DNA from: Planctomycetota bacterium
GTDB lineage: Bacteria; Planctomycetota; UBA1135
Assembly: GCA_045047305.1 (NCBI GenBank)
Contig: JASFYO010000040.1
Span: 1 to 24,019 of the forward strand
Length of the DNA: 24,019 nt
Direction of reading: 5' to 3'
A program made the position numbers and the translations under genes. Under the pieces are notes generated by a model. It saw only the letters and a program-made list of their open reading frames with translations. It was not told the DNA's origin and did no database searches. Below are positions 1 to 21,683 of this stretch, in pieces (within the stretch, counting starts at the first letter, position 1; each line of letters begins with the position of its first letter).

Positions 1-1
1 T

Positions 2-1423
2 GTAGCGCAACTCTTCGGTCTATTTGCAGGGCTTCAGTCTAGTCGCGTCTTGCGCCATTGGCTCGAGGAAGTGCCGACCGAAGAGTTGCGCTACATTGCA
101 CCAGAGATTCTCGCAGGAGGTGATGGTAGCCCGGCGAGCGATATCTACGCCATGGCTGCGATGTTAGTGGACCTGTCTGTCGGTACCGATGGCAAGAGCA
201 GACGAGAAGCGGACAAAAAACTGGAAGAGCAAGCCCCGGAAAGGTGGCGAGCGATTCACGGGGCACTTTCGGAGAATGCCATCAACAGGCCAAGTTCGGC
301 CGCTCAGCTCCTAGCCTCGATGGAACTTCTATGGAGCGGCAATGTCGGTGAATCAGAAGCCCCACAAACAGCACCGGTGATCATCGCTGTCGGTACCGAA
401 TTCGGTGCGGAGGAATCCACGGAAACTACCTTGGACGATTACATCGGCGGACAAAAACTGCTGGATGATGATGATGAGTCCGACCCATATCCGGACAGTA
501 CTAGCGGGGTAGAATCGTCGGACGACTTTTTTGTGTCCGAAGTCGTTGCGCCTGCGCCTGTTCGCGAGAAAGTGAAACACGCGAGGGAACTCGATGTCGA
601 TGAGGGCGCAGAGGCATTCGAGCTTGGCTCTTATGACGGTGGCGAAGCCGATAACGACACCATCATCAACTTGGTTGCCAAGCCCGCAGTGGACAGCCAT
701 GTGCAACTGCAACCGCCACTGCAAGATCGGCCGGCGGCACAAGGTGAACTCTTCAGCTCATTTCAAGATCGCAAGAGCAGCTCAGGGTTCTTGCCACTCC
801 TGGTCGCTGCGTTGGTGGCTGGCGCTGCGGCATACCTGTTATCGCGCTCGCAAGGGGACTCGGAACCTTCGGCAAGCTCGTCACAAGAAAAGACTCCCGA
901 TGCTGGTGTCGCTACCGAAGACTCGACCGTGCTTGTGGCCGAGCCTCTGCCTATTTGCCCGACCTCGATGCTGCATCTTGCCGAAAAATCACTGTGTATC
1001 GACGCCTACGAGTCCCCTGGGCTTGGGCAACTGCCAACAGTCTCGATTTCGCTAGAAGACGCTAGGCGGGCGTGTGAGGCACGAGGTGTTCGTCTCTGCC
1101 TCGCTGTCGAGTGGGAGGGGGCGTGCAGACACAAGGGCAACCAGAGCTTTGGCTACGGCAACCGCTACCGTGCCGAGATCTGCAACTTACAGTCGGAGAA
1201 GCTGGGGCCTGCCGGCGGCAAAGGCGAGTGTCATACCGATATCGGTGTCTATGATTTGAACGGGAATGCTGCTGAATGGGTGCATGAGGGCGAGATTCGT
1301 GGAGGCTCCGCTCTCGATGGAAGCACAGGTCGGTGTTCGCTCTCCCGGGCCAAGCCCGAAGCTGCGCCGAGTTATTCTGACGTTGGCTTTCGCTGTTGTG
1401 CTGACGCTATTGCATCGCCCTAG
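2..1423 (+). CDS. Ser/Thr kinase-fold domain (C-lobe) + acidic linker + TM helix + FGE-sulfatase (SUMF1/formylglycine-generating enzyme-like) domain protein; 5'-partial
   Basis: Frame is open from base 2. Kinase subdomain VIII-XI-like motifs RYIAPE, SDIYAM and NRPSSA. TM stretch FLPLLVAALVAGAAAYLL. C-terminal CPTSM..CIDAYE..ARRACEARGVRLC..EWEGAC..GVYDLNGNAAEW..RGG..GFRCC is typical of FGE-sulfatase domains. Confidence 0.8.
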   Translation, partial: VAQLFGLFAGLQSSRVLRHWLEEVPTEELRYIAPEILAGGDGSPASDIYAMAAMLVDLSVGTDGKSRREADKKLEEQAPERWRAIHGALSENAINRPSSAAQLLASMELLWSGNVGESEAPQTAPVIIAVGTEFGAEESTETTLDDYIGGQKLLDDDDESDPYPDSTSGVESSDDFFVSEVVAPAPVREKVKHARELDVDEGAEAFELGSYDGGEADNDTIINLVAKPAVDSHVQLQPPLQDRPAAQGELFSSFQDRKSSSGFLPLLVAALVAGAAAYLLSRSQGDSEPSASSSQEKTPDAGVATEDSTVLVAEPLPICPTSMLHLAEKSLCIDAYESPGLGQLPTVSISLEDARRACEARGVRLCLAVEWEGACRHKGNQSFGYGNRYRAEICNLQSEKLGPAGGKGECHTDIGVYDLNGNAAEWVHEGEIRGGSALDGSTGRCSLSRAKPEAAPSYSDVGFRCCADAIASP

Positions 1424-1462
1424 AGTTCTGGCTAACAGTTGGGCCCGAAAGGGCATCCCACT

Positions 1463-2785
1463 ATGATCGATCGCTACTCTCGTCCCGAATTCGCACAACT
1501 TTGGTCCGACTCTTCCAGGTTTGAAATCTGGCTTCAAATTGAGTTGGCCGTCTGCAGCGCCATGGAGGATCGCGGCACGGTCCCCAAGGGAACAGCCGCT
1601 GCTGTGTCCGCGCTGTGCACTGGTAATCTGAGTGCAGACCGCATTCTCGAAATCGAGGCGAAAACTCGTCACGATGTTATCGCATTTCTAACGCACGTAG
1701 AAGAACTCGCAGGGGAGCCAGCTCGTTGGCTACACTTGGGTATGACTTCTAGCGATGTCTTGGATTCGTCGCTCGGCATGCAATGCAAAAACGCTCTAGG
1801 TGAAATTCTCAAGGGTGTAGATGTGTTGCTCGCATCACTGAAGAAGCGCGCCGAGGAAGAACGCAATACTCCGGTTATGGGGCGCTCTCACGGAATCCAC
1901 GCCGAGCCAATCACGGCCGGACTGGTGTTTGCCCGGTGGCATGCCGAACTCGCTCGTTGCCGCGGACGAATCTCGGCAGCACGGGAGCAAATTGCTGTTG
2001 GCAAAATTGCTGGAGCAGTTGGCACCTACGCTAATATAGATCCTGAAGTCGAAGAAGTCGCGCTGACTGCGATTGGTCTTAAACCCGAGACTGTGGCCTC
2101 ACAGGTCGTCGCTCGCGACAGGCACGCAGAACTTCTCAACGCCTTGGCCTTCTTAGGCGCGGCGATTGAGAACATGAGCGTCGGAGTCCGGCATTGGCAG
2201 CGCACTGAAGTGGGCGAAGCAGAAGAGGGCTTTGGCAAGGGGCAAAAAGGCTCGAGCGCGATGCCCCACAAGAAAAATCCCATCTTGTCCGAGAATCTCA
2301 CTGGGCTGGCTCGCATGTTGCGCGCGTATGCTGGAGCATCTTTCGAGAATATTGCTCTGTGGCATGAACGCGACATCTCTCACTCTTCGGTAGAGCGAAT
2401 TAGCATTCCCGATGCGACAATTTTGGCCGACTTTATGTTGGCTCGTTGCACAAGGCTTATCGACGGGCTGGTCGTACACCGAGGCCGCATGATGGAAAAC
2501 TTGGAGCGAACTGGCGGGCTGTGTTTCTCCGAAGCGGTTCTACTGTCTCTTGTCCGAAGTGGACTTCCTCGGCAAGAAGCCTACGTCATGGTTCAGCGAT
2601 GTGCGCTCGCAGCACACGCAGGCGAGGGCGGGTTCCGCGAGAATTTGGGCAAGGACAAAGACATCACCGAACACCTCGACGCTGGGCAACTCGACTCTTG
2701 CTTCGACTTGCAACACCACTTGCGGCATGTGGATACGATCTTTGCCAGAGCCTTTGGTACGGCTGTCCCGAAAGCAGAAGGATAG
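1463..2785 (+). CDS. purB: adenylosuccinate lyase
   Basis: Starts MIDRYSRPE. Contains [29 protein letters not shown], the fumarase/aspartase-family signature [11 protein letters not shown], and [13 protein letters not shown]. Confidence 0.96.
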
Positions 2786-2787
2786 TC

Positions 2788-3717
2788 ATGGCGGTCGATT
2801 TGGAAACACTTCGCAAACAGCTTCCCAATACACTGGAGAGCACTAGCTTTCCCTCTCTTGGCGAGAAGTACGAAGGCAAAGTTCGGGACTGTTACGTCGG
2901 TGATGGGCGCCGGACAATCGTGGTCTCGGATAGAATTAGCGCCTTTGATGTGGTCTTGGGGACCTTGCCTTTCAAGGGGCAGGTGCTCAATCAAATCGCT
3001 CAATATTGGTTTGACGAATCCAAGGATGTCGCGCCCAATCACATGCTCGATGTGCCGGATGCAAACGTCATGGTCGGACAGGAATGTCGGCCGCTAAAAG
3101 CGGAGTTTGTCATGCGATCGTATTTAACGGGAGTGACTTCAACCTCGATTTGGCAGGCGTACAAGGGCGGGGCTAGGACCTTCTGTGGCCACGATTTGCC
3201 CGAGGGCATGAGCAAAAATCAGAAACTTCCACACCCGATATTGACGCCTTCGACCAAGGCTGAAAAGGGTGGGCACGACGTCTCGGTGTCTCGTGAAGAG
3301 CTTATCGAACTCGGACATATCTCGGCTGAGGATTTCGACAAAGCGGCAGCGATGGTGCACCGACTCTTCGAGTTTGGCGTGACCAGAGCGGCGGAGCGCG
3401 GGCTTATCTTGGTCGACACCAAGTACGAAATCGGGGTATCTCCAGATGGCGAGATGATGTTTATCGACGAGATTCACACGCCGGACTCCTCGCGCTATTG
3501 GTACGCTGCTGACTACGAGAAGCGGCTGGCGGAAGGGCTTGCGCCTCGAAGTCTAGACAAAGAGTATCTGCGTTTGTGGATGTCCGAGACCCATGGCTAC
3601 ACAGGCGAAGGTGATCCGCCGGCTCTGACAGATGAAGTTCGTGTCGAGGCAGCCAAACGCTGCAATGACCCAGCCCATGCCAAGACAACAGGAGTGGGTC
3701 GATGGCTTTCAGGGTAG
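2788..3717 (+). CDS. purC: phosphoribosylaminoimidazolesuccinocarboxamide (SAICAR) synthase; native C-terminus apparently lost after ~3660
   Basis: ATG 2 nt after the purB stop (MAVDLETL). Motifs [49 protein letters not shown] and SLDKEYLR. After EAAKR the sequence reads into the antisense strand of the symporter remnant. Confidence 0.92.
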
Positions 3718-3826
3718 TCGCAATTTCTGAGAAACCACCTATAAAGCTGTAGGCCACCAATGGTAGCGCAACCAAGCCAATCACTAGCAGAATGACGGCG
3801 TAAATGCTGACCGCCAGCAATTTCAT
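3661..3826 (-). pseudogene. Na+/solute (PutP/SSS-like) symporter remnant, internally deleted and truncated
   Basis: MKLLAVSIYAVILLVIG resembles SSS TM1 and is joined directly to [34 protein letters not shown], which resembles a mid-protein helix plus loop of PutP-like transporters. It then runs into antisense purC. Confidence 0.5.
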
Positions 3827-3958
3827 GGCAAGTTCTAGATGGATGTCATGTCCTTATGTTTGAGACCACTGCGGTAACGACGTCCATCTCCGCAGGCTTC
3901 CCATCACAGGAAAAAGATAGGGGCTTTCCCTGTCCAGCACGCGCATTTCCTTTGAGAG

Positions 3959-5365
3959 TCAAAGCACAGAAGAGCGAAACACCACCATGCGCTCCAATGT
4001 CATATCCTTCATGGAGTGACCGATGCCGCCAATACCAAGGCCGGACTGCCGGTGCCCTCCAAACGGCATCCAGTCAACACGGAACGCAGAATGATCATTT
4101 ACCATGACTGCCATGCCGTGCAAGCGTCTGGAAGCTAAAAGCGCCGTGTTAAGGTCGCGAGTGAAAATTGATGCTTGGAAAAACAAATCCGGCCGGTTGG
4201 CGCGAGCGATTGCATCGTCTAGGTTTTCGAATGTATAAATCGCGACGACAGGACCAAAAATCTCTTTTTGAGAGACCTGAGCACTCTCAGGCGGGTTCCA
4301 TAAAACCGTCGGTGCGTAAGTGGTGGCAGAAATCTTCCGCCCCCCACACAACAAAGTTGCACCCGCTTGAACCGCTTCTTGAACCCAAGCATGCACGCGC
4401 TCCACTTCTTGAGGGCGAATCAGTGGCCCAACATCGGTGTCGCCATTGAGCTGGTCCCCGGTGATTAACTGCTCTGCGGCGGCCACAAAATCGTTGGCAA
4501 ATTCCGTTGCTACTTTTTCATGAACGTAGATTCTCTGTACCGAAACACAGACTTGCCCGGCGTGATAGAAGCCACCACGTACAAGCAATGGGATGCTGTC
4601 TTTGACATCAGCCGTTGCATCTATAATTACCGGGGCAGCGCCTCCATGTTCTAATGCACAAGTGGCGCCAGCGGCTAACTTCGAACGCAAATACCAACCG
4701 ACCTTGGAGGAACCAATGAAAGTAAGAAAGGACACGCGGCAATCGCAAATAATCTTGGTGGTCACCTCATCTGCGCAGGTGATTAACTCACACCAGCCCC
4801 TTGGTAGGCCTGCCTCATGCAGAAGATTGACCACACTGATTGCTGACAGTGGCGTATCGCGAGAGGGTTTGACCAGGACCGGGCAGCCCGCAGCTACTGC
4901 GGTAATCGCCTGATGGATGATGAGGTTGAATGGGTGATTAAATGCACTGACCGCCAGGACCACACCGCGCGGCTCACGAAAAGTGTGCGCGAATCTCTGC
5001 GTGGATGAATCAGTCAAGCCCATGGGGACTTCGGTGCCGTGTAACTTGCCGATTTCCTCGATGGCAACTTCCACCCCTTGGATTGCGCGGCGGATTTCCA
5101 CCAAGGAATCTTTGAGAGGTTTGCCTCCTTCGCGCGCAGCCTGAAGTGCCAAAGCCTCTGTTTGCTCCGTAACCAATCCCGCAAATCGTTTAAGAATTTC
5201 AATGCGGGCCTGAGCTCCAAGCCAACCATCGCGATTCCGATATAGTTGAACAGCGCATTCTAATGCATCGAAAGCTTGTGCTTCGGTTGTTTCCGCCACG
5301 GTTGCAAAGATGGATTCATCGAAGGGATTGGTGACGTCAAAGGTTTGTTGATTTGCGTTGGTCAT
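3959..5365 (-). CDS. NAD(P)-dependent aldehyde dehydrogenase (possible succinic semialdehyde dehydrogenase)
   Basis: AFNHPFNL, VKPS, FIGSSKVG, LEHGG (general-base Glu), AGQVCVS (catalytic Cys), EIFGPV, MPFGG. Likely start MTNANQQTFDVTNPF at 5365. Confidence 0.92.
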   Translation of the reverse strand: MTNANQQTFDVTNPFDESIFATVAETTEAQAFDALECAVQLYRNRDGWLGAQARIEILKRFAGLVTEQTEALALQAAREGGKPLKDSLVEIRRAIQGVEVAIEEIGKLHGTEVPMGLTDSSTQRFAHTFREPRGVVLAVSAFNHPFNLIIHQAITAVAAGCPVLVKPSRDTPLSAISVVNLLHEAGLPRGWCELITCADEVTTKIICDCRVSFLTFIGSSKVGWYLRSKLAAGATCALEHGGAAPVIIDATADVKDSIPLLVRGGFYHAGQVCVSVQRIYVHEKVATEFANDFVAAAEQLITGDQLNGDTDVGPLIRPQEVERVHAWVQEAVQAGATLLCGGRKISATTYAPTVLWNPPESAQVSQKEIFGPVVAIYTFENLDDAIARANRPDLFFQASIFTRDLNTALLASRRLHGMAVMVNDHSAFRVDWMPFGGHRQSGLGIGGIGHSMKDMTLERMVVFRSSVL

Positions 5366-5408
5366 TGCGTTGGTTATTGCGTTTTCTGAATTCGTGCCGA
5401 GAATGCGC

Positions 5409-7052
5409 TTACAAAATGCACGTTTTTTGCTGAAGTTGTTCGAGAAAGACTGCTTCGTTCTCAGAGTAATCCACCGGCGTTTCAATGAGATGAATTCCAC
5501 CTGCATCAAAAGCCTTGTTCAACTCTTCCACCAATTGTCCGGTGCGCTCAATCCGCACGCCATGAGCGCCGTAGCTTTCTGCATACTTCACAAAATCTGG
5601 GTTACCGAAGTCGAGTCCAAAGACTGGAAATTGGGAGCCAGCTTGTTTCCACTTAATCATGCCGAAGCCGTTGTCTCGCAACACAATCACAACCAAATCA
5701 AGCCCTAAGCGAACTGCCGTTTCCATCTCTTGGGAGTTCATCATGAAACCGCCGTCGCCGCAAATGGCAACCACCTTACGCGTAGGGTTGACTAGCTTTG
5801 CACCAATTGCAGCAGGTAGACCGGCACCCATCGTCGCAAGGGCATTATCCAATAGAACCGTGTTGGGCTGGTGCGCCTGATAGTTGCGTGCGAACCAAAT
5901 CTTATACATGCCGTTATCCAAAGACAGAATCCCATCGCTTGGCATCGCTGCACGCACATCCGCGACCAACCGTTGTGGCACGTTCGGGAAACGATCTTCT
6001 TGCGATTTATGCGCGAACACATTGCTCGCAATCTGAGTGCGCACACGCTCAAAGTAATCAAAATCCCAACTGGGTGAAGGTGTGATGGAATCGGTCAAGG
6101 TACGCATATTCGTTGCCGTGCAGCCAATCACTTCGTGTTGGGGGAAATACACGTCATCCATTTCGGCTTGGAATTGAGAAATGTGAATGACTTTATGGCC
6201 CCCTCGCCGCATCAAAAAAGGCGGCTTTTCGCTTACATCATGGCCGACGTTAATGATCAAGTCAGCCCGCTCAATCGCACAGTGAAGGTAATCTGTATCG
6301 GAAAGCGCCGCTGTGCCAAGGCATTGTGGGTGACGTTCATCAACTGCCCCCTTCCCCATTTGGGTTGAAAAAAAGTAAATGCCCGTCCGATCGATGAAAT
6401 CGCGTAACGCCGAACCACAATGGTTGCGATTACACGCCGAGGCAATCAACAGCAAAGGTTTCTCTGCTGCTTGAATCATATTTACAGCGTGGTGAATCGC
6501 GCGCTGGCTAGCTCCGGAAGGCGAAACCTTGGTCACCGTAAACGGCAAGCGATCTACTTCTTCGGCCGCAATATCTTCTGGCAACTCCAGATGAACGGGT
6601 CCCGGTTTTTCACTCACCGCAATACGAAAACACTCTCGGACAAGATGTGGGACATTATTGCCGTCAACAATCTGCGTCGAGAATTGAGTCACGGGCTCCA
6701 TGAGAGCCACGATGTCAACGATTTGAAATCGACCTTGTTTGCTGGCGCGAATAGGTTTTTGTCCAGTAAGGAACAGCACGGGCATTCCTCCAAGCAAAGC
6801 GTACGCCGCCGAAGTTACGAAATTGGTTGCGCCAGGTCCTAAGGTAGAAAGGCACACGCCAACTTTCCCGGTCAGTCGCCCAACAGTGGCGGCCATGAAT
6901 CCTGCCGCCTGTTCATGACGAGTTAAAATGAATTTGATCTTGGAGTTGCGCAACGACTCCAAAAAATCAAGGTTCTCTTCTCCGGGGATACCGAAAATAT
7001 ATTCCACGCCCTCGTTTTCCAGGCACTGGACCAGTAGGTCTGATGTTTTCAT
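5409..7052 (-). CDS. ThDP-dependent acetolactate synthase large subunit-like enzyme (possible 2-oxoglutarate decarboxylase)
   Basis: FGIPGEENL, TRHEQAAGFMA, STLGPGATN, PGPVHLELPED, and the ThDP motif GDGGFMMNSQE...RDNGFGMI; 547 aa. Confidence 0.9.
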   Translation of the reverse strand: MKTSDLLVQCLENEGVEYIFGIPGEENLDFLESLRNSKIKFILTRHEQAAGFMAATVGRLTGKVGVCLSTLGPGATNFVTSAAYALLGGMPVLFLTGQKPIRASKQGRFQIVDIVALMEPVTQFSTQIVDGNNVPHLVRECFRIAVSEKPGPVHLELPEDIAAEEVDRLPFTVTKVSPSGASQRAIHHAVNMIQAAEKPLLLIASACNRNHCGSALRDFIDRTGIYFFSTQMGKGAVDERHPQCLGTAALSDTDYLHCAIERADLIINVGHDVSEKPPFLMRRGGHKVIHISQFQAEMDDVYFPQHEVIGCTATNMRTLTDSITPSPSWDFDYFERVRTQIASNVFAHKSQEDRFPNVPQRLVADVRAAMPSDGILSLDNGMYKIWFARNYQAHQPNTVLLDNALATMGAGLPAAIGAKLVNPTRKVVAICGDGGFMMNSQEMETAVRLGLDLVVIVLRDNGFGMIKWKQAGSQFPVFGLDFGNPDFVKYAESYGAHGVRIERTGQLVEELNKAFDAGGIHLIETPVDYSENEAVFLEQLQQKTCIL

Positions 7053-7061
7053 AATTTCTCT

Positions 7062-7445
7062 CTAAAGAGTGCTACCTACAATCGGCAATTCTTTACGCCG
7101 CGTGTACAAGACATAACTGGAACACAACAGTACGCAAGCGAGCATGGCCACAAGCATTCCGCCATCGCCCTGCACATCAAAACCAATACGCGTGGTGTGG
7201 GCAAGGATTGCTCCACACATCATGGCGACTGCGAGTAAGGATCCCAGTGCTGCAAATGGAGAAAGCAGCAGTAGCGCGGCGGTCAATTCGATGACTGCGG
7301 CGAGATAGCGCCCCACGGGCTCCATTTTCAAGGTGTTAAACATTTCCACGCTTTCTGGCGCACTGACGAATTTGCTATAGGCCGCCAGCAACAGCAGAGA
7401 CGCCGCGATTAGCTGCGCTAAAAAAGTAATCTTGGAGTGCTTCAT
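7062..7445 (-). CDS. DoxX-family membrane protein
   Basis: 127 aa with about 4 hydrophobic helices. Motifs AAYSKF, GRYLAAVIELTAALLLL and MCGAILAH. ATGA overlap with the upstream gene's stop. Confidence 0.75.
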   Translation of the reverse strand: MKHSKITFLAQLIAASLLLLAAYSKFVSAPESVEMFNTLKMEPVGRYLAAVIELTAALLLLSPFAALGSLLAVAMMCGAILAHTTRIGFDVQGDGGMLVAMLACVLLCSSYVLYTRRKELPIVGSTL

Positions 7446-8938
7446 GTCAGTTGCTTGTTCAGACGAGGTTGCGCCGCTGAGCTAGCGCGGTAGATTTGTT
7501 CTTCACTCAAATCACAGGAAGATTTCTTACCGACTGCCGAAAGAAGCTCCTCGTAGTCGTGATGAATCGCGTCCACATAGTTCGCAACGCGCTGCGATTT
7601 GTCAGCGATATTCAGACCTTTTTGCAAATGAGCATCGTGGGTGGTGATTCCAACAGGGCACGTATTGCGGTTGCATTGCAACGCCTGAATACAGCCCAAC
7701 GAGAGCAAGAATCCGCGTGCGGAATAAACCACATCTGCGCCGAGAGTCATGGCTTTCATCTGCTTACCTGGGCTAATCAACCGTCCCGACGCAAACAGCA
7801 CGAGTCGATCACGGACTCCTGCCTCTACAAGAATATGTTGCACCATGGGCAAGGCTTCAAACAGTGGCATGCCAATATCATCCATGAAGCTCTTAGGCGC
7901 TGCACCTGTTCCACCTTCGCCGCCATCCACGGTGATAAAGTCGGGAAAAATATCCTGCCGTTTCATCTCCTCAACAAGTTCTAGGAATTCGTCGGGCCGA
8001 CCTAAACAGAATTTGATCCCGGTCGGAAGTTTGCTGACATTTTGCACGTGGCCGATAAAAGCGATGGTCGATTGAGGATCAACACATTCCGCATGGTGAG
8101 CAGGAGAAACAACATCTTCATCCATGCTAACGCCACGCAAGTCTGCGATTTCAGCGGTAATCTTCTCTTGCGGCAGTAGGCCACCCTTACCTGGTTTCGC
8201 TCCCTGTGACATCTTGATCTCAATCATCTTGACTGCATCCAACGCTGCTATCGCCGCCAGTTTTTCATCATCGAGATCATTCCCATTCTTACGCGCACCG
8301 AACTTCGCAGTGCCAAGTTGAAAAATCAAATCACATCCTTCCATTAGATGATACTTCGGGTAACCCCCTTCGCCCGTGTTCATCGGAATCCCAGCGAGCT
8401 TGGCTCCGCGCGCCAATGAGCGCACCGCGTTTTTCCCTAAGGCCCCATAACTCATGGCACTAATCATGATGGGGCGTTTGATGTGATATGCCGATGCCAA
8501 GCCGCGCGCCGCCCCAACTGCAACATCGAACGGCTCCAAATCGGTTTTATCTACGGGATAAAACGAGTGCCGTAATTTCATTTCGGTGCGATCATAATCC
8601 AACAAGGTTCCAAAGGCTGAAGATGAATCTAGCCCTTTAGCTTTTGCATAGATTTCGGCACGCTCCACGCGATTAAACGGCCGTTCCTCGGTATCCGAAG
8701 AAAAAAAGTACTGCCGCATTTCAGGCCCAACACTTTCTGCGATGTAACGGAATTGAGCCATGAAGCCAAAGTTCGCAAGCAAAGTATGGCTGCTTTGAAA
8801 ATGCCGCCAATACATATTGACAACCACCAGCAAAAAGAAGGCCACTGTCAAAAAGTGGAAGTAGAACGAAACAAATTGCCCGGTGAAGCCGAACATCACG
8901 AGAAGCACGACAATGCTGACATTTGCCATGCGCGACAT
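7442..8938 (-). CDS. FMN-binding glutamate synthase family protein (stand-alone GltB FMN domain) with N-terminal TM helices and Fe-S cysteine motif
   Basis: ISAMSYGALG, NTGEGG, IEIKMSQGAKPGKGGLLP, DFITVDGGEGGTGAAP, CIQALQCNRNTCPVGITT. Start is uncertain: ATG at 8938 chosen, ORF is open to TTG at 9007. Confidence 0.9.
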   Translation of the reverse strand: MSRMANVSIVVLLVMFGFTGQFVSFYFHFLTVAFFLLVVVNMYWRHFQSSHTLLANFGFMAQFRYIAESVGPEMRQYFFSSDTEERPFNRVERAEIYAKAKGLDSSSAFGTLLDYDRTEMKLRHSFYPVDKTDLEPFDVAVGAARGLASAYHIKRPIMISAMSYGALGKNAVRSLARGAKLAGIPMNTGEGGYPKYHLMEGCDLIFQLGTAKFGARKNGNDLDDEKLAAIAALDAVKMIEIKMSQGAKPGKGGLLPQEKITAEIADLRGVSMDEDVVSPAHHAECVDPQSTIAFIGHVQNVSKLPTGIKFCLGRPDEFLELVEEMKRQDIFPDFITVDGGEGGTGAAPKSFMDDIGMPLFEALPMVQHILVEAGVRDRLVLFASGRLISPGKQMKAMTLGADVVYSARGFLLSLGCIQALQCNRNTCPVGITTHDAHLQKGLNIADKSQRVANYVDAIHHDYEELLSAVGKKSSCDLSEEQIYRASSAAQPRLNKQLT

Positions 8939-9104
8939 TCTTCCAAGGTCGACGGCGAGAGTGGATTTCAAGAGATTGTAGTTCCGGGGGTTAGGGTGCT
9001 GGGCCAAGACCCTTAGGACACTGCGTCTTCGGTCTCAACCAATAGCTGTTACAGCATTGTTGAAGTTTCCAGTGACCATTCCACAAATGTTAGGGAAGAG
9101 AGCT

Positions 9105-9412
9105 GGGTCGATGCGTGTTGCCAAGAAGTTCAAGGGCACTATGGTGGCAGAACAGGGCATCGGGACACTCGACGGCCGCAACTTGGAATGCTTCCGGTTG
9201 AAAGCCCTCGGACGCGCCCCTGCTGGGACGACGGCGTAGAGTCCACGGGCCAGGAGCTTCAACTTGCCCCGGTCGAGGTGATAGCGCAGGCGCTCCCGCG
9301 TTCGGTCACGTTCCCCCGCCGTGTCCAGCTCCCGCACGGCCTGATTCAACGAGAAGACCGAGTGCAAAGAGAAGAACTCCTGGGCGGACACTTTGCGGCC
9401 AGTTCCGTTCAT
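9105..9412 (-). pseudogene. AbiEi-type (type IV TA antitoxin/wHTH regulator) pseudogene, frameshifted and 3'-truncated
   Basis: Frame 1 reads MNGTGRKVSAQEFF..VFSL..LRYHLDRGKLKLLARGLYAVVP. After a frameshift near 9205 it continues FQPEAFQVAAVECPDALFCHHSALELLGNAH (AbiEi-like 'HSALE.G'), then similarity stops. Confidence 0.7.
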
Positions 9413-9419
9413 GGGGAGA

Positions 9420-9458
9420 AATTTACGTGTTTGAGCGCTCGGCGGCAAGTGCGTGTTT
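9420..9458 (-). promoter_or_regulatory. putative sigma70 promoter of the AbiEi pseudogene with AAACACG direct repeats
   Basis: Minus strand reads TTGCCG-17 nt-TAAATT-7 nt-ATG. Two AAACACG(C/T)A copies flank or overlap the promoter. Confidence 0.45.
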
Positions 9459-9505
9459 CCAATCCAGGCTTACCGAATGGCTGAGGACAAAGGGCATCGC
9501 GCTCT

Positions 9506-9750
9506 TCATGATGCTGGCCTCGGCTGCAAGACCGGGTGCGCAGAAACGCTCGCCAGCGATTTCGCGCACCGAGTCATTGCCACGTACAAATTCTAGGTAT
9601 CGAGTTCATCAGCATCAAAAACGATGACATGGTCGCACTCCAGGCCCTTGACCAATAGAGTTGTCCCTAGTGCGTAGTGGGGCATAATGCGTCCGGCGAT
9701 GTCGGGTCGGTTCCGCATGCTCCATGCGGCTTCCTCAAGCTCTCCGCTTC
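9506..9750 (-). pseudogene. C-terminal remnant of a UvrD/SF1 helicase (GajB-like)
   Basis: GTTLLVKGLECDHVIVFDADELDT*NLYVAMTRCAKSL shows SF1 motifs V and VI in one frame, with an internal TAG at 9593-9595. The N-terminus is absent and the remnant abuts the hsdM stop. Confidence 0.7.
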
Positions 9751-9758
9751 TCCTGCCA

Positions 9759-11225
9759 TTACTCTTCCACACGAAGCGCATCTTCAACCCCGCGGAACTC
9801 ACCCAGGGCAACTTCCAACGCCTCTACAATCTCCGCAGCTAGAATCGCTGGCGCCGGCAAGTTCTCTACATCTTCAAGAGATTCATCTTTGAGCCACAAG
9901 ATGTCCAGGTTGGCTTTGTCTCTAGCAACAATTTCTTTGTAACTGAATTTCTTAAAACAGTCGGTCTCTTTACGCTTGGCAACTTTACCGGCTTGATAGA
10001 CGGCCTTGAAGTCCTCGAGATCTTTGCTCCCGAGAGGATTTGTTTTGAGAGTAAAATGTTGGTTCGTACGAAGGTCGTAAATCCACAGCTCCTTCGTCCA
10101 GGGCTTTTCGCTGGCCTCCTTACGATCAAAGAACAGGACATTCGCCTTAACCCCCTGGGCGTAGAAGATGCCGGTGGGAAGACGCAGCAGGGTATGCACG
10201 TTGCAGCGCTTCAGAAGTTCGCAGCGGATGGTCTCGCCAGCGCCGCCTTCAAACAATACGTTGTCGGGAAGCACAACGGCCGCAGTGCCCCCAACTTTGA
10301 GTTCGCTAACGATGTGCTGCAGGAAGTTCAGCTGTTTGTTGCTGGTAGTCGCCCAGAACTCGTCACGCTCGTATTCCTGCTTCTCCGTGGTGATCTTCCC
10401 GTCTTCACCAACGATGGTGTACCCGCCCTTTTTACCAAAAGGCGGATTGGCGAGGATCATGTCAAACTTCTTGCCACTGGGTTTGGCCAGGGCATCGGCG
10501 CGATCAACCGGTGGGTCATTAGCATCTTTCGTCGAACCGATGCCGTGCAGGTAGAGGTTCATGGCGCAGAGACTGACCACACCGGGGACGATGTCTGTGC
10601 CGCGCAGGGCTTCCGTCTTGAGGTGCGTGCGTGCAGCTTTATCGAGCTTGTGCTGCGCCTGGATGAAGTCGTGGGCGGCAAGCAGGAAACCACCAGTACC
10701 ACAGGCAGGGTCGCCGATGAGCTGTCCTGGTTTCGGCTGCATAACATCAACCATGGCGCGAATGAGAGGGCGCGGCGTGAAATATTGGCCGGCGCCCTTA
10801 TCGGAAGAGCTGGCGGTCTTTTCAAGCAAGCCTTCGTAGATAGCGCCCTTGATATCCACATCCATCCCAGACCAATCCTCATCAGCGATCATCTTAATCA
10901 CACGCTGGAGGTCGGAAGGATTAGAGATCTTGTTCTGGGCCTTGCGAAAGATGATGCCGACGAGACCGGGCTCTTTGCCGAGAGCCTCAAGCGTGTGGCG
11001 ATAGTGAATTTCGAGATCATCGCCGCTCTTGCTGTTCAGCTCGGACCACTTGAAAGCATCGGGAATCGGGTTGTCGAAACCCAACTCAGTCATCTCGTCG
11101 GCCAGCTTCAGAAAAAGTAGGTAGGTAATCTGCTCGACGTAGTCGCCGTAACCGACCCCCGCGTTCTTGAGCACGTGGGCGTAGTTCCAGACTTTGGAGA
11201 CGATGGAGGCGGAGTTGTCGGACAT
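9759..11225 (-). CDS. hsdM: type I restriction-modification N6-adenine methyltransferase subunit
   Basis: YVEQITYLLFLK, GAGQYFTPR, SAM-binding DPACGTGGFL, catalytic ANPPFG, LRLPTGIFYAQGVKANVLFF. Confidence 0.96.
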   Translation of the reverse strand: MSDNSASIVSKVWNYAHVLKNAGVGYGDYVEQITYLLFLKLADEMTELGFDNPIPDAFKWSELNSKSGDDLEIHYRHTLEALGKEPGLVGIIFRKAQNKISNPSDLQRVIKMIADEDWSGMDVDIKGAIYEGLLEKTASSSDKGAGQYFTPRPLIRAMVDVMQPKPGQLIGDPACGTGGFLLAAHDFIQAQHKLDKAARTHLKTEALRGTDIVPGVVSLCAMNLYLHGIGSTKDANDPPVDRADALAKPSGKKFDMILANPPFGKKGGYTIVGEDGKITTEKQEYERDEFWATTSNKQLNFLQHIVSELKVGGTAAVVLPDNVLFEGGAGETIRCELLKRCNVHTLLRLPTGIFYAQGVKANVLFFDRKEASEKPWTKELWIYDLRTNQHFTLKTNPLGSKDLEDFKAVYQAGKVAKRKETDCFKKFSYKEIVARDKANLDILWLKDESLEDVENLPAPAILAAEIVEALEVALGEFRGVEDALRVEE

Positions 11226-11232
11226 GTCAGAT

Positions 11233-12014
11233 TCAGTCTTGGTCTGGTTGCTTGTGGTTGCCTTCTAAGCGCTTCACTTCCCGGTCGAAATCGGAAATGA
11301 AGTCCTTGAGTAGTTCTTAGCTACGGTGATGTCGCTCTTGAGCACTTTTCCCTTTGGCCCGGCCTTCCAAGTGCTAAGGCCCATGTGAGGCTTGTCCGCA
11401 TCGGCCAGCTCGTGGATGGTCTCCGCTGCGGTCCTCCCGGTAATCGCCCAATGCAACTTGTTCTGCACATTGGCGAAAAACTCGTTTGTGATCGGCGCCT
11501 TCGAATCGTAATCGACCGCTAGGGAGTATATGTCGGTGATCTTCTGGTAGAAGCGCCGTTCGCTCGCGCGGATTTCGCGGATACGGTCGAGCAACTCGTC
11601 GAAGTAATCCTCGCCGAACGACTTGCCTTGCTTGAGCCGCTCATCATCCAACACAAAGCCCTTGATGACAAATTCCTTGAGTGTCTTCGTGGCCCAAATC
11701 CGGAACTGAGTGGCCTGGTAGCTATTGACCCGATAGCCGACGGCGATGATCGCATCGAGGCTGTAGAAATCAATCATGCGGCGAACCTCCCTCGTCCCCT
11801 CCTGTTGAACTATTTCCATTTTGGAAAGAGTTGCTTCCGCCTCCAATTCACCGGTCTCGTAGATGTTCTTGAAGTGCTTATTGATCGCGGGAATGCCAAC
11901 GCCGAAGAGGTCCGCCAAGCCCCGCTGGGTCATCCAGAAGTTCTCATCCTGATAAACAACCTCAATGCGCTGCTCACCTTCCGACGTCTTGTAGAAAATC
12001 AGTTCGTGAGCCAT
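11233..12014 (-). pseudogene. rhuM: RhuM-family protein with an internal deletion/frameshift near 11308
   Basis: WMTQ..LADLF, YSLDAIIAVGYRVNS..ATQFRIWAT, IREIRASERRFYQK, VQNKLHWA, KSDITVAKNY. The sequence then jumps to a different frame encoding KDFISDFDREVKRLEGNHKQPDQD*, a RhuM-like C-terminus with its stop at 11233-11235. Confidence 0.8.
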
Positions 12015-12034
12015 GATGGTGAAACGGATTGGAC

Positions 12035-12199
12035 GTCGAGGATCGGGTTGTCGAAACTCAGCTCAGTCTTCTCGTCGGCGAGCTTGAGGAAGAGCAGGTA
12101 GGTAATCTGCTCGACGTAGTCGCCGCAACCGACCCCAACGCTCTTGAGAATGTAGGTGGAGTTCCAGACTTTGGAGACGATGGCGGAGGAATCTGGCAT
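12035..12199 (-). pseudogene. degenerate 5' fragment of a second hsdM; diverged direct repeat of 11058-11225
   Basis: MPDSSAIVSKVWNSTYILKSVGVGCGDYVEQITYLLFLKLADEKTELSFDNPILD against HsdM; hand count gives 39/49 identical residues from IVSK to the final D. Confidence 0.9.
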
Positions 12200-12201
12200 G
12201 T

Positions 12202-14448
12202 TCATGGAAGGTTTCCTGCTTCTGCCGAAAATTCAGCCTCTAGTGAGGCAATATGACTCGGGTTGTGAGTGTTCAGAGCTGTTAGCACATCTCCGATTAT
12301 TTCTTTGCAATGCGCAACGTAGTTGGGAACCTCGGTTGCTTGAGTAAGGCTATGAGAGTGAGAGTTTTCATCTGCGAACTTTTTTATTTTTCCGCACGTT
12401 TCTTCGCACGGAATGATTTTTCGGAGCTTGTCACCCCATCCACCGGACTCTGGGAAAACGAATCCGAGGTATGCTTCGAGAAGCCGTCGAATCATATTCG
12501 GAACACCGCACAGAAGCTCAAATTGGGGTGCAGGATTCTCGTGGATTACCTTCAAGCAATAGTAAGTATACTGGTAGTCAGATTTGAACTTCTTCAGCAT
12601 TTTTGGAAGCCGAACAAGTGATGAAAACCACTCTTGCGATGCATCCAACTGCCGGTGTGTCATATAGAACCTGCCATCAACCTTTTTCATCCAATCTTTC
12701 GTGATTCCAAAAAAACTGGAATTGTGGGTTAAGACGAACAGTTGACGAGCCTTGCCGAGTCGGTTCTCGGTGATCGAGTGAACTGCGTAAATGTGATTTG
12801 AATCCAGGCTAGAGATTGGATCATCAAGAACGATGATGGTCTCTTCGAGTGGGATAGTTCCTTCTTCCAATTTCGCCAGAAAGTAGGCGAACGCGACTGC
12901 AGCCCTTTCGCCTTCGCTCATGTTCTTCGCGACCTGCCCACCACGCTGAAATTCGAAGTCAGTGTCATTGAGTTTAACAGCTTTGATATTGTCACCTGGC
13001 AGGAGCACCTTTAGGTTGTCGTTGATTCGACGTGCGGCGATAGACGCGTCTCTAATTGCTTGTTTTGCGTCTCTGATGGTCGTTCCAATCCTTCCGCAAG
13101 TTGCCGTGCAATTCCCGGCGCGAACTTCAATAGCGGCCATTTGCTCCTCCCTCTCGAGAACTTTGCAATCGCGCATATATTCGACAGCGTAGTGTTCGCA
13201 GATTTCCCTTTTTGCTTCTGCTTTTACTGTCTCGGCGGCGGCAACACGATCGTTGTGTTCTTTGAGAATCGCGTTGAATGCGGAAATGGCGGACCGCAAT
13301 TTTATAGCAGGTTCAGGGTCTGGTCTCCAATCGGTTGAAGTTTCAAGTGCAGCCAGCTTGGCGTCCACCACAGCAAGTAGGTTTTCGATCGCACCCTTCA
13401 CTCCTTGAAGTGCATTGCGAAGGGTTGCCAACGCCTCCTGAAAACGAATCCGGAGATCAGGGAAAAGGGCCGTCTCTGTAATTGCAGGAGAATCGAAATT
13501 CAGATTCTCAATCGATGTGCGATACGTTCTGAGACTAGCTTGTAGTGCTGCAAATGCCTCTGAGAAGTGCCCTCGCAGTTCAGTCCATCTGGCAGGAGAG
13601 ACTGTATTGCCACAAAATCCACAAGGACTGTCAGCCGCATTCAAGTCGATGCCAGTTTGAGCCCAATTCTCGAGGGCGTGGTTATCCTGCAGCGCATCAA
13701 TGGCTGTATTGGTAGCAATCTCGCGAAGAGCACGCCGGAGTTGGGGAACAACCCGAAAGGCTGAAGAATGGTCGGGAGAGAACAGAGACGCGGAAGAAAA
13801 ATCGGTCGCCTTCCGAAATTCCTCTTTCTTGTTCTCTAATGCGTTCTCCTTAAACGGGAGAGGCCAAATATTTCGCGGTAGGGCTCTGATTGTATCTCGG
13901 AGGTGGCGACGATCGTAAGGACCACCGACAATCCCGTTCACGATGCGAGCTTGCGCAGTTCCGTCGGTATCGGTCTTCTCCAGAATGGCGCCTTTGTCGC
14001 CTCGAAGCTTAGTGCGAAAAGCGTCAACCTTGGCGAGTCTGCGTTCTAAGTCAGTAAGGCGGTCTTTGAGTGCTTGGTTTGCTTCGCCTAGGACGGCGAT
14101 GACGTTTGCTCCCGTCATGTCAGTCCCATCTCGGAAATTGCGTTGCACGAACTGCCTGTTAAATACGCGTATGTGAGGGAGCGGTCCTGTAAATGTCGAA
14201 GCAACGGTGGTTCCGTCCCCTTTTGTAAACTTAAACGTTCCGCCAGCATAGTCCCCGTGGATTGCGGACTCCTCGATAGACTGAAAAACGCGCGACAAAG
14301 TGGTCTTCCCGGAGTAATTCCAGCCGTAGATCAGGTTGTAGCGACTAAAGTCGTCGAGTTGGCCGGCATCCCATACGAAACTCCTAAAGAGTCCGAAACT
14401 TGTAAGGGAGTCTAGAGTTTTGAGTCTGTCGTGGGAAGCAGGAGGCAT
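12202..14448 (-). CDS. RloC-like AAA_13 family ABC-ATPase with coiled coil/zinc hook and C-terminal HEPN (putative anticodon nuclease)
   Basis: Walker A GWNYSGKTT, Q-loop-region VFNRQF, zinc hook CGFC in a coiled coil, signature MSEGE, Walker B/D-loop IVLDDPISSLD, H-loop LTHN, and C-terminal RRLLE...NSHSH. Confidence 0.85.
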   Translation of the reverse strand: MPPASHDRLKTLDSLTSFGLFRSFVWDAGQLDDFSRYNLIYGWNYSGKTTLSRVFQSIEESAIHGDYAGGTFKFTKGDGTTVASTFTGPLPHIRVFNRQFVQRNFRDGTDMTGANVIAVLGEANQALKDRLTDLERRLAKVDAFRTKLRGDKGAILEKTDTDGTAQARIVNGIVGGPYDRRHLRDTIRALPRNIWPLPFKENALENKKEEFRKATDFSSASLFSPDHSSAFRVVPQLRRALREIATNTAIDALQDNHALENWAQTGIDLNAADSPCGFCGNTVSPARWTELRGHFSEAFAALQASLRTYRTSIENLNFDSPAITETALFPDLRIRFQEALATLRNALQGVKGAIENLLAVVDAKLAALETSTDWRPDPEPAIKLRSAISAFNAILKEHNDRVAAAETVKAEAKREICEHYAVEYMRDCKVLEREEQMAAIEVRAGNCTATCGRIGTTIRDAKQAIRDASIAARRINDNLKVLLPGDNIKAVKLNDTDFEFQRGGQVAKNMSEGERAAVAFAYFLAKLEEGTIPLEETIIVLDDPISSLDSNHIYAVHSITENRLGKARQLFVLTHNSSFFGITKDWMKKVDGRFYMTHRQLDASQEWFSSLVRLPKMLKKFKSDYQYTYYCLKVIHENPAPQFELLCGVPNMIRRLLEAYLGFVFPESGGWGDKLRKIIPCEETCGKIKKFADENSHSHSLTQATEVPNYVAHCKEIIGDVLTALNTHNPSHIASLEAEFSAEAGNLP

Positions 14449-14456
14449 CGGACGTC

Positions 14457-15722
14457 TCAGAGTTGCTTCGCTTCCGCGTTAAGAAGGTTGCCAGTGAATG
14501 CGGCGGCGAGAGTGGATTGGCGCAGGCGGTTGGAGCGGGTGATCTGGCGGTCGAGTTCGACTTCGAGGTGGTCGATGGCAGTGGTGCGACCTTCGACTTC
14601 GGCGACGATTTGGTGTTGCTCGGCGAGCGGTGGAAGAGGGATGGGAATCTGATTCAGGTTTGCCTGGGTAAGCTTTGGCTGTGCTGTGCCAGTAACAAAT
14701 CGTGTAATGTCCTTTCCATTGAAAAACAGCCCAACATAAGTCAGTGGTATGCCGCCTAGGGTTTGGACAATATGTGCGTGGTTGTTCACCCAGAATCTTC
14801 CGTGCGCTTGAAAGGCGATAGGAGTCGATCGCGAAAGTAGATTTGCACCGTCTTCAGCGATAAGCAGGAAGTCGCCATCGAATAGGTAATCATCAATATC
14901 ATCGATAATGCCTGATGCCCCGTAGTAAGGAAACTCTCCAGATCGTTGATCCCGATCTGCTCGCTTTAGGGGAATTCGTTGGCCATCAAAATTTTTACAG
15001 ATTTGGTCTACTGACGAAATTTGCCAACCTTCGGGAACATCCATTGGCTGCTTCAACTTGGGTCCCTTTGGCTCTTTGTATTTCCCTCTTCCACTCCAGT
15101 TCTCCCTCCGCTCCACTAGAATCCGCTCGAGCAGCTCTTCTGCAGGTTCGGTGTCGGGGTGTTCTTCGCGCCAAACTTGGGTGAGTTGGCCGGTAACGGC
15201 GGCGGCGAGGACGGATTGGCGGTAGCGTTTGAGTTGGGCTTTGGCGTGGCGCAAGGCGGCGACGCCGGCGTCGAGCCGCGAAAAGAGTTCCTCAATCCGC
15301 GCCACGATCCGACGTTGTTCGGGAAGGGGTGGGATCAACAGGCGAGCTTTCTTGAGATATTGAAAATGGCGAGCATAACCCTTGTCCGGAAAGTCGAGGG
15401 CGTGAGCTATGTGGTAAAGCCACTTTTCATCAACTCCGATTGGTTTGAAGACTTTGACGCCATCAGCACCTGGCACAAACGGACGGTTAAGGAATTTGAA
15501 GATTCGGGTGTGATCTCCAAAGACAAGCAATGGGAGATTATCCTCAACTACTCGTTCTAGATCATCCGAATACCCGCCGACAAGCTGCTGGCCTTGGTCG
15601 ATTACCGGAAATCGACCATCTTTCGAGTAATGCTTTCTGGGAAGCTTCTTATCGTTGATTGAAACGTTGCGGATTACGTCCCCGAAGGAGCATTCCTCCC
15701 AGCCTTCAGGAAGTTCACTCAT
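14457..15722 (-). CDS. hsdS: type I R-M specificity subunit with two TRDs
   Basis: LPEGW start. TRD1 has FGDHTR..GADGVK. Conserved PPLPEQRRIVARIEELFSRLD and PAEELLERI. TRD2 has PYYGASG..AEDGANL..WVNNHAH. C-terminal PLPPLAEQHQIV..AAFTGNL. Overlaps the hsdR stop. Confidence 0.95.
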   Translation of the reverse strand: MSELPEGWEECSFGDVIRNVSINDKKLPRKHYSKDGRFPVIDQGQQLVGGYSDDLERVVEDNLPLLVFGDHTRIFKFLNRPFVPGADGVKVFKPIGVDEKWLYHIAHALDFPDKGYARHFQYLKKARLLIPPLPEQRRIVARIEELFSRLDAGVAALRHAKAQLKRYRQSVLAAAVTGQLTQVWREEHPDTEPAEELLERILVERRENWSGRGKYKEPKGPKLKQPMDVPEGWQISSVDQICKNFDGQRIPLKRADRDQRSGEFPYYGASGIIDDIDDYLFDGDFLLIAEDGANLLSRSTPIAFQAHGRFWVNNHAHIVQTLGGIPLTYVGLFFNGKDITRFVTGTAQPKLTQANLNQIPIPLPPLAEQHQIVAEVEGRTTAIDHLEVELDRQITRSNRLRQSTLAAAFTGNLLNAEAKQL

Positions 15723-18547: not shown

Positions 18548-18806
18548 GGTTGGATTCGTTAGGTGCTAAACAACTAGGCTAGCTGCTCAGGCAGTGGAGG
18601 GCTAGAGATGATTGCTCTGGATGTTCCTCCATAAACGGCGGGCAATAGTCTTAGATTCGTCCTTTTTGCGGACTCGCGCTTGCAAAAAACGGCGTCGGCC
18701 TCGGCCTCGACGCGGAAAAGAACTTCACCTTCGGCGCCGGTGGCATCGGCCACTCCTGGAGTTCAGTAGAAAGGCTGGTTGAAACCAAATTTTTCACATG
18801 ACCGAG

Positions 18807-18934
18807 CACTACTTTAAGCACCCCTCCTCTCTCTTAAACTAGTCAGAACATATGCTCTACAAAACCCTTACACTGCTTCCGCTGCTCGATTAGCACCGAT
18901 TAGTTTAAGATGTGGACTAGCCTTAAAGTAAGTG
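18807..18934. repeat. nested imperfect inverted repeat built from four TASTTTAAG/CTTAAASTA half-sites
   Basis: TACTTTAAG (18810-18) N14 CTTAAACTA (18833-41), and TAGTTTAAG (18901-09) N12 CTTAAAGTA (18922-30). The inner arms TCTTAAACTAGTC and GATTAGTTTAAGA pair at 12/13 positions. Confidence 0.65.
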
Positions 18935-19028
18935 GTTCTCCACTGAGCCTCACTCATGACCATTATCGCGCAACCATCTTAATTGCTAACCCGCTTCGGA
19001 TTAACTTCTTGAGGCGAGACTTTGTCCC

Positions 19029-20099: not shown

Positions 20100-20217
20100 C
20101 TGGATTGATTTGCAAGCGATTGCCACCCCCAGCGGCCAAAAAATATTTCCGGCATGCGAAAGCACCCTGACAAATCTCAATGTACGAATGCCGAATTCGA
20201 TGCGGACGCTCTTGATT

Positions 20218-21078
20218 TCAAACACCACCGGCCTGCCGCAACAAGGGCCATAGGAAGTCATGCAGGGTTTGAATAACCTGTGCCAGCGGAGGAGCGGCTA
20301 AGTCATTCTTGCGCAGAAAAGCCTGCCATTGGGTTTGCTTGTCCTTGTCCTCGGCAAAAGCTTGCGTCAGCGCCAACGGGCAGGTGTCAGGCAGAGGGGT
20401 TTGCCGCCGCTCGAATGTGGCGCGTATCGCACGGATCAGAACAGCGGTATCAAAAGTCCGGTTTTGCGCCAGCCAGTGCAGATCGTAAAAATCTTTCATA
20501 CGGCTGTTCAGTCGCCCTAGCTTGACCGCCGCTTCCAGTTTCTCGGCAATCACCGTTTCGGGTGGATACGCGCGTAGCGTCGGCGCGGGCAGGTCCAGCA
20601 GGCTTGGCCAGGTAATCATTGTGGCCCCGGGGGTGATGGCATCGCCAAAGCCGACATCGACCTGGACGCGAATCTGCGCGCCGTGCAACAAAGCCACCCA
20701 GCCCAGACGGATGCCGCCGTATTCCGCCTCCTTGCGAATCGGTGCCACCTGAAGTGTGCCCGCATCCCAAATCAGGCCGTCATCGGGCATATCCGGCAAT
20801 TGTGCAAGCTCGGCAAAGATGGCGTGCATTGCCTCGGCCGAACTATCTCCATAGCCCAGGAAGTCCACATCGCGCGTGGGTCGGTGTGGCGTGCCCGCCC
20901 ATAGTGCGAACAATTGGGCACCCTTGAGCACGAAGCGATCGGCATAGGGGCTTTGGCTCAGGCGGTACAGCAGGCGTTCCAGTGCATAGCGTTCGAGCAA
21001 TGCCTGGAAATCACCGCCCTCTTTGCGAAAACGTGCTTTCAGCTTGGCGAAGACGCTTTCGGCTTTGGATGAGCTCAC
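20218..21078 (-). CDS. abiEii: AbiEii/AbiGii-family nucleotidyltransferase toxin (type IV TA)
   Basis: ERYALERLLYRL, FVLKGA, RPTRDVDF, VDVGFGD, ETVIAEKLEA, NSRMKDFYD. GTG start overlaps the antitoxin TGA, with GGAGG 7 nt upstream. Confidence 0.9.
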   Translation of the reverse strand: MSSSKAESVFAKLKARFRKEGGDFQALLERYALERLLYRLSQSPYADRFVLKGAQLFALWAGTPHRPTRDVDFLGYGDSSAEAMHAIFAELAQLPDMPDDGLIWDAGTLQVAPIRKEAEYGGIRLGWVALLHGAQIRVQVDVGFGDAITPGATMITWPSLLDLPAPTLRAYPPETVIAEKLEAAVKLGRLNSRMKDFYDLHWLAQNRTFDTAVLIRAIRATFERRQTPLPDTCPLALTQAFAEDKDKQTQWQAFLRKNDLAAPPLAQVIQTLHDFLWPLLRQAGGV

Positions 21079-21677: not shown

Positions 21678-21683
21678 GAAGCG

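Follow-up and report, generated by a model that had tools for sequence, protein, structure and literature searches.

A possible CoA-independent route from glutamate to succinate suggested by two separable gene modules in a contig assigned to Planctomycetota

We describe here a gene cassette in a 24,019-nucleotide stretch of DNA (the window, analysed at its full length), which is the whole of contig C40 (JASFYO010000040.1) of an 88%-complete genome of a Planctomycetota bacterium (GCA_045047305.1; G000). The cassette consists of four co-oriented genes on the minus strand, which encode, in this order, a GltB-like protein that binds flavin mononucleotide (FMN) and is devoid of a glutaminase domain (7442..8971), a DoxX protein (7062..7445; PF13564), a thiamine diphosphate (ThDP)-dependent enzyme of the DNGxYKxW sub-branch of the PRK08322 family (5409..7052; NF006187), and an ALDH21-like aldehyde dehydrogenase (ALDH; 3959..5365; best match in the PDB, 5mz5). 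The FMN and DoxX genes overlap by 4 nt (ATGA) and are followed by gaps of 9 nt between the DoxX and ThDP genes and 43 nt between the ThDP and ALDH genes, the latter including 12 nt that are missing from the contigs of runs X1, X2 and X5. This layout had been proposed in an earlier sequence-only reading of the same DNA and is confirmed here, and so is the lack, among the 21 window open reading frames (ORFs) scanned, of ilvH, ilvC and acetolactate decarboxylase genes. The FMN gene, too, is present as described, except for its start: the longest ORF extends from 9007 to 7442, as annotated, but the homologues start about 12 codons inside it, so the gene probably begins with the TTG at 8971. A Pfam scan of the cassette finds PF01645, PF13564, three ThDP domains and PF00171. 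The scans for promoters (4 versus 4.6) and terminators (6 versus 7.2) both yielded chance-level counts.

Does this combination of genes recur elsewhere? Of the 588 candidates that a genome scan for the FMN gene gave, drawn from 26 of 64 parts, the 80 best were considered; they provided 37 loci close to that of the window (51-72% identity) and 43 distant ones (37-47%). The four genes lie side by side in 9 further genomes, from Bdellovibrionota, Verrucomicrobiota, Myxococcota and Planctomycetota, and this recurrence takes the grouping beyond chance; the adjacency is seen at 8 of the 37 close loci and, in genome G057, at a second locus as well, and comes in two gene orders. The neighbourhood survey that had been named beforehand as a test of the proposed operon thus does find the FMN gene together with the ThDP-ALDH pair. 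The notion of a single conserved set, however, survives only in part: the set consists of two separable modules, FMN-DoxX and ThDP-ALDH, the former occurring without the pair nearby at 25 of the 33 loci that carry DoxX. At locus L013, the same four-gene set is filled by a ThDP enzyme of the branch that we treat below as cyanobacterial-type, and at L021 it contains an ALDH of the ALDH21 branch. Approached from the other side, through the best 80 of 586 metagenome loci selected by the ThDP gene, the association is found again: an ALDH gene is present at 52 of these loci, and an FMN gene lies directly upstream at 7, without DoxX and from two other FMN subclades, such that the FMN-ThDP linkage occurs in three FMN subclades. 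A glutamate dehydrogenase (GDH) gene is found near the ThDP + ALDH pair, in loci without an FMN gene, in 4/80 cases (L214, L217, L219 and L223). In the ThDP tree, from which 30 tips were removed as outgroup or because of short upstream sequence, 17 of 76 tips are FMN-adjacent (10 of these 17 found via the FMN gene), which requires at least 12 changes, the mean for shuffled tips being 15.5. It is quite unlikely that two unrelated mobile modules came to lie side by side through chance or through assembly. The mosaic nature of the window contig (see below) and the fact that the closest relatives of each module stand alone (L001, L181, L190) would fit such an accident, but contigs of run X1 cover positions 3666-9007 at ~95-96%, spanning the gene junctions and excluding the flanks, and the linkage extends over 9 genomes, 4 phyla, two gene orders and three FMN subclades. 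The cassette is genuine.

Two observations on the neighbourhoods stand apart from this argument. YceI-like genes adjoin two of the four-gene loci (L002:8972-9652, L153:11306-12004), and YceI was considered as a fifth part and rejected, being near few loci only. A second FMN-ThDP association involves a Rieske-fused GltB-like FMN protein encoded beside a ThDP enzyme, likewise fused to a Rieske domain, that belongs to a different family (L151:5563-9177 and L152:6889-10509, in genomes G009 and G039, with a similar arrangement in G020).

The ThDP enzyme scores over the cut-off of the PRK08322 model NF006187 (834 versus 509 bits) and below those of the acetohydroxyacid synthase (AHAS) model TIGR00118 (362 versus 538) and the AlsS model TIGR02418 (389 versus 551). 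The PRK08322 family splits into two branches. The branch that does not include the window enzyme has most of the residues named for KGD, the 2-oxoglutarate decarboxylase of Microcystis (MaKGD; PMC10418658), and for this reason we infer that it is the cyanobacterial type, a comparison made by motif from published residue numbers, with an alignment and a tree that hold no cyanobacterial sequence. In the window enzyme, which is 40% identical to the L013 enzyme of that branch, E47, M408, D433 and D460 match the residues E50, M410, D435 and D462 given there as required for MaKGD activity, Y529 matches Y531, and K384 and K469 (kept in 50/50 and 46/50, respectively) match K386 and K471, the lysines of the docked MaKGD model. 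Neither lysine is present in the AHAS and acetolactate synthase sequences compared. Furthermore, a separate AHAS-level match exists in 8 of the 9 four-gene genomes, and acetolactate decarboxylase (PF03306) in one of them. Taken together, these features suggest that the enzyme probably decarboxylates 2-oxoglutarate. The alternative, that this sub-branch acts on another substrate, either in an Ehrlich-type route for some other amino or 2-oxo acid or as a true acetolactate synthase, appears unlikely. Six pocket residues do differ (S251, N380, M382, Y383, F463 and M465 in place of Q254, V382, A384, H385, Y465 and L467 of MaKGD), identity to the cyanobacterial-type branch is low as given above, databases label the enzyme acetolactate synthase, and the closest solved relative, PDB 13bb, carries the same name. 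Against this stand the retention of both lysines, the scores below the AHAS and AlsS cut-offs, the absence of K384 from 13bb itself, and the observation that both sub-branches pair with ALDHs that bear the carboxylate triad described next and interchange in one gene set (L013, L021).

The ALDH falls below the cut-off of NF006915, the model for succinic semialdehyde dehydrogenase (SSADH) of the gabD1 type (200 versus 730 bits), a family to which the cyanobacterial SsaD presumably belongs. Its best match in the PDB is ALDH21 (5mz5, E 3e-84), and R94, Y268 and R430 map to R121, Y296 and R457, the carboxylate triad of ALDH21 (bioRxiv 10.64898/2026.01.13.699213; also PMC7823795). This triad is found in 58 of 61 neighbouring ALDHs, the remaining 3 being incomplete sequences. 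The KPSRDTP site of the window protein, which differs from the KPASRTP of ALDH21 and varies among relatives, is without the acidic residue that NAD-dependent ALDHs have there. We consider it highly probable that the enzyme oxidises succinic semialdehyde, possibly with NADP. Hence the earlier assignment of an SSADH holds, with the correction that the enzyme is ALDH21-like and lies outside the gabD1 family; likewise, the retained lysines and the scores below the AHAS and AlsS cut-offs bear out the proposal that the ThDP-ALDH pair is a likely 2-oxoglutarate-to-succinate bypass rather than an acetolactate synthase system.

The FMN protein matches PF01645 (E 2e-86), whereas against the model of full-length GltB, NF008730, it obtains only 103 bits (cut-off 1047) and covers only positions 863-1165 of 1490; the glutaminase domain is not present according to either Pfam or this model. 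At its N-terminus is a membrane hairpin of two helices with the motif SFYFHFLTV (hydrophobic segments 27-53 and 45-68). The membrane-anchored FMN/Fe-S protein without glutaminase that had been read from the sequence is accordingly what we find, the hairpin and the cluster cysteines both being in place. The predicted structure (predicted local distance difference test, pLDDT, 86.8; predicted template modelling score, pTM, 0.88) retrieves glutamate synthases (GltS) as its seven top fold matches, with E values from 3e-22 to 1.5e-19, followed by hydroxy-acid oxidases at 1e-11. The cluster cysteines 439, 445 and 450 as well as K271, R291 and T367 are invariant in 58/58 homologues (P0001 numbering), and the latter three align with K972, R992 and T1065 of Synechocystis GltS (1llw), which we take to be ligands of 2-oxoglutarate. 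The stand-alone FMN GltB-like family is present in 84 of 301 genomes sampled from the phylum. Clustering of the neighbours of the close FMN loci recovers no recurring GltD or ferredoxin gene, and the literature consulted, with few subscription papers covered, yielded no activity data for the stand-alone FMN family or the FMN-DoxX pair.

The assignment of DoxX as the partner of the FMN protein is supported. The DoxX gene itself (PF13564, 28.6 bits, cut-off 26.3; Atlas 0.94) encodes a small multi-helix membrane protein in which K25, E53 and H83 are invariant in an alignment of 35. It directly follows the FMN gene at 33 of 37 close loci and at 0/43 distant loci, and the same division holds out of sample: among 29 new loci from the 301-genome phylum sample, DoxX is present in 7/7 close and 0/22 distant ones (2 of these 22 incomplete). 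The close FMN loci form a single clade (support 1.0). The hairpin motif SFYxHFxTV occurs in all 31 full-length DoxX-linked FMN proteins and in none of the four DoxX-less close ones, of which one is basal and three belong to a nested clade (one ends at a contig end). Structure prediction for the FMN-DoxX complex gives a score of 0.53, the best control reaching 0.00, with at least 95% contact agreement between runs and a partner pLDDT of at least 84; among solved pairs, 116 of 157 meet the mark applied to such scores, as against 2 of 215 among mismatched ones, and the range up to 0.60 holds 18 solved pairs and both mismatches, so the predicted complex lends weak support to the pairing. On these grounds, it seems reasonably probable that DoxX binds the FMN protein. 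No solved structure of a DoxX relative was found. The FMN-DoxX fusions P0197 and P0259 were not counted as Rosetta-stone proof, having non-conserved linkers or frameshift-like internal losses. At L021:9012-11057, an NDH-2-like gene comes right after DoxX, and P0257 is a DoxX-NDH-2 fusion protein.

Any function assigned to the full set has to accommodate these findings jointly. The scenario that we favour is an optional path, independent of CoA, by which the two modules together would take glutamate to succinate, a tentative proposal to which we give somewhat less than an even chance. Glutamate at the FMN site would be oxidised to 2-iminoglutarate, which would be hydrolysed to 2-oxoglutarate and ammonia; the membrane hairpin, against which DoxX would be packed, would be the place where electrons from FMN reach quinone by way of the [3Fe-4S] cluster; the ThDP enzyme would convert 2-oxoglutarate to succinic semialdehyde, and the ALDH would oxidise the latter to succinate, with formation of NAD(P)H. 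The oxidative direction is suggested by the membrane anchor, the absence of GltD, the 2-oxoglutarate consumer encoded downstream and the GDH gene found in the same context. That glutamate is the compound from which the FMN protein forms 2-oxoglutarate seems to us evenly poised between right and wrong, and the same balance applies, separately, to quinone as its electron acceptor. The full description, a two-subunit membrane FMN/[3Fe-4S] glutamate:quinone oxidoreductase, derived in evolution from the GltS synthase domain and run in reverse, with DoxX as the membrane subunit, is more speculative and stands at distinctly less than an even chance.

The principal uncertainty concerns the substrate and direction of the FMN protein. 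The bypass could be correct and the donor to FMN-DoxX could be L-2-hydroxyglutarate, an N-substituted glutamate or D-glutamate, a possibility that is rather unlikely, albeit appreciable. The same conserved site for a five-carbon dicarboxylate would serve any of these compounds, FMN 2-hydroxy-acid dehydrogenases are the next fold neighbours after GltS, N-methylglutamate synthase includes a stand-alone FMN GltB domain, and GDH genes of the ordinary kind exist in 9/9 four-gene genomes anyway. Conversely, the FMN neighbours include no recurring genes for methylamine or hydroxyglutarate, a GDH gene adjoins the same pair at 4/80 loci, and the fold is much nearer to GltS (1e-19 to 1e-22) than to the hydroxy-acid oxidases (1e-11). 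In particular, the window contains no amidotransferase or GXGXG genes of N-methylglutamate synthase, and no cluster of that type recurs in the 37 close loci, as judged by clustering with no dedicated profile. A further alternative, that the FMN protein is a reductive, ammonia-dependent glutamate synthase that shares its regulation with the decarboxylase at the branch point of 2-oxoglutarate, strikes us as improbable. Reduction is the known direction of GltS and suits its low potentials (PMC8097209), and gltB2 of S. aureus has been assumed to assimilate ammonium (10.1101/2022.06.26.497478, where this is an assumption for which no assay was found in the available text). Nevertheless, a full GltB is present in 8 of 9 carriers, there is no neighbouring GltD or ferredoxin gene, such an enzyme and the decarboxylase would be rivals for the same 2-oxoglutarate, and quinol-driven amination would be uphill.

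Numerous considerations weigh against the glutamate-to-succinate route or parts of it, and we collect them here. The FMN and [3Fe-4S] potentials of GltS are low, -240 and -280 mV (PMC8097209), so oxidation to quinone would require potentials above these values, and the conserved residues of the FMN site are uninformative on substrate or direction. The pair is beside just 8 of the 37 close FMN loci and, within 1.5-kb flanks, at 0/29 of the new ones; a PRK08322 gene over the cut-off exists in 19 of the 37 close-clade genomes and in the other 18 there is none; the three closest relatives of the ThDP enzyme (76-87%) have no adjoining FMN gene; and the four GDH-linked ThDP loci are one clade. As for the ThDP enzyme, apart from the six pocket differences, the lysine contacts of MaKGD come from docking, not mutagenesis (PMC10418658), and no activity data for the DNGxYKxW sub-branch were found in the literature, of which few subscription papers were covered. 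Most of the FMN family is without DoxX, which makes DoxX dispensable for the family chemistry, and the match between hairpin motif and DoxX corresponds to about two events, one gain and one loss. The hairpin histidine is replaced by asparagine in 2 of the 120 top homologues, which also weakens the idea of a haem bridging the two subunits through His51 of the hairpin and His83 of DoxX. Finally, the four-gene genomes encode sucA (9/9), an ELFV (GDH-family) dehydrogenase (9/9), full GltB (8/9) and glutamate decarboxylase (1/9). With sucA and a GDH-family gene in all nine carriers, the cassette would be an extra route, redundant on paper, and its role as a replacement of 2-oxoglutarate dehydrogenase, GDH or glutamate synthase is rejected.

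The surroundings of the cassette pose a separate problem. The contig is a mosaic, possibly a chimera or an island, comprising a Myxococcota-like purB/purC arm (window 1-3660), the cassette and then a type I restriction-modification cluster (9035-24019). Identity of the left-arm purB is 57-60% to its counterparts in two Myxococcota genomes, as compared with 28% to the G000 copy on contig C36; purC (2785..3717, plus strand) is cut at ~3660, where it adjoins the symporter remnant at the left border of the cassette, such that its match to NF009251 stops at profile position 279 of 315, and a second purC, of the genus type, is on contig C29. On the right side, HsdM groups with Akkermansiaceae proteins. 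Neither the ThDP gene nor the window FMN clade is found in any of 8 same-genus genomes, 4 of which have a distant FMN paralogue, and a typical G000 region finds no long match in X1; the tetranucleotide distance of the cassette is ordinary, 17% of 482 genome pieces being equally far. The host of the cassette is thus uncertain, the alternatives being a chimera and a recent transfer, and for that reason the lack of sucA and ilvC in G000 is set aside and given no evidential use. The genus-type FMN paralogue of G000 (L149:3673-12518, contig C3), which may hold a stop near its end, is located ~5 kb from GDH-family genes, as is also the case in G006.

At the left end of the cassette, a sodium:solute symporter remnant (3666..3826, minus strand; resembling the SSF genes L114 and L116) begins at 3826, 132 nt past the ALDH gene. 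An in-frame deletion of ~522 nt, the length by which the symporter on the X1 contig exceeds it, has its junction at a 10-nt microhomology, and the remnant is cut at ~3666. No match to it exists at any other four-gene locus, and so the symporter is rejected as the importer of the pathway; its inclusion in the operon by the sequence-only reading is not upheld, this being a broken local neighbour, deleted and cut, outside the conserved set. The right flank encodes, in addition to type I restriction-modification with RhuM and AAA_13, AbiE, ParDE and Fic. Within the restriction-modification cluster, a 155-nt direct repeat (86%; 11059-11213 and 12036-12190) flanks rhuM, and the AbiE pair lies between the copies of a 165-nt repeat (19899-20062 and 21773-21936). 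The stretch next to the cassette on its upstream side, 9035-9760, appears by eye to hold an AbiEi-type gene fragment and a helicase C-terminus; Pfam has no match for 9035-9448.

Proteins of the FMN GltB-like family are usually annotated as glutamate synthases without assay, and the linkage described here suggests a concrete substrate, direction and partner. If the proposal is true, the widespread 'FMN-binding glutamate synthase family' would acquire a catabolic function, so that the usual reading flips from nitrogen assimilation to glutamate oxidation, and the cassette would encode a respiratory glutamate dehydrogenase that needs no NAD(P) and feeds a CoA-free path to succinate. The DoxX clade would gain a defined partner, and the cyanobacterial 2-oxoglutarate bypass would extend to a widespread enzyme branch mislabelled as acetolactate synthase.

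Several known systems resemble parts of the cassette. The FMN protein shares with the GltS synthase domain (1ofd, 1llw, 1ea0, 7mfm) the FMN barrel, the [3Fe-4S] cysteines and the Lys/Arg/Thr of the substrate site, and differs in the absence of the glutaminase, central and beta-helix domains and of GltD and in the presence of the membrane hairpin and the DoxX partner. The membrane anchor is shared with the broad family of other stand-alone PF01645 proteins, from which the window clade is distinguished by its separate position (support 1.0), by DoxX and by the absence of mgs neighbours. For DoxX, the parallels are BtdS, a DoxX protein that is the small subunit of hydroxyhydroquinone dehydrogenase, and DoxD of thiosulfate:quinone oxidoreductase, in both of which a small membrane protein of the four-helix type accompanies a catalytic subunit (PMC10084136), whereas the partner in the present case is an FMN/Fe-S barrel with an anchor of its own. 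The ALDH resembles ALDH21, the NADP-dependent SSADH of Physcomitrium (5mz5), in the Arg/Tyr/Arg triad and the catalytic Cys and Glu; it represents a sister bacterial branch (ALEHGG, FRVDWMPF) and would serve a decarboxylase, whereas ALDH21 serves the gamma-aminobutyrate shunt (glutamate decarboxylase, as noted, is found in 1 of 9 carriers). The closest precedent for the pair is the cyanobacterial bypass of OgdA/KGD and SsaD, known from Synechococcus PCC 7002 (A2770/A2771; PMC5160925) and Microcystis (MAE_06010; PMC10418658), whose 2-oxoglutarate decarboxylase was likewise initially labelled acetolactate synthase (PMC4224347). In the window, too, the ThDP gene shares an operon with one for a likely semialdehyde dehydrogenase, the ALDH 43 nt downstream, and its product retains the catalytic residues and the docked lysines; the differences are the other ThDP sub-branch, the ALDH21-like partner, the FMN and DoxX genes upstream and the sucA kept by the carriers. 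By analogy, the pair likely works like the OgdA/SsaD bypass, its two enzymes being relatives rather than proven members of that system.

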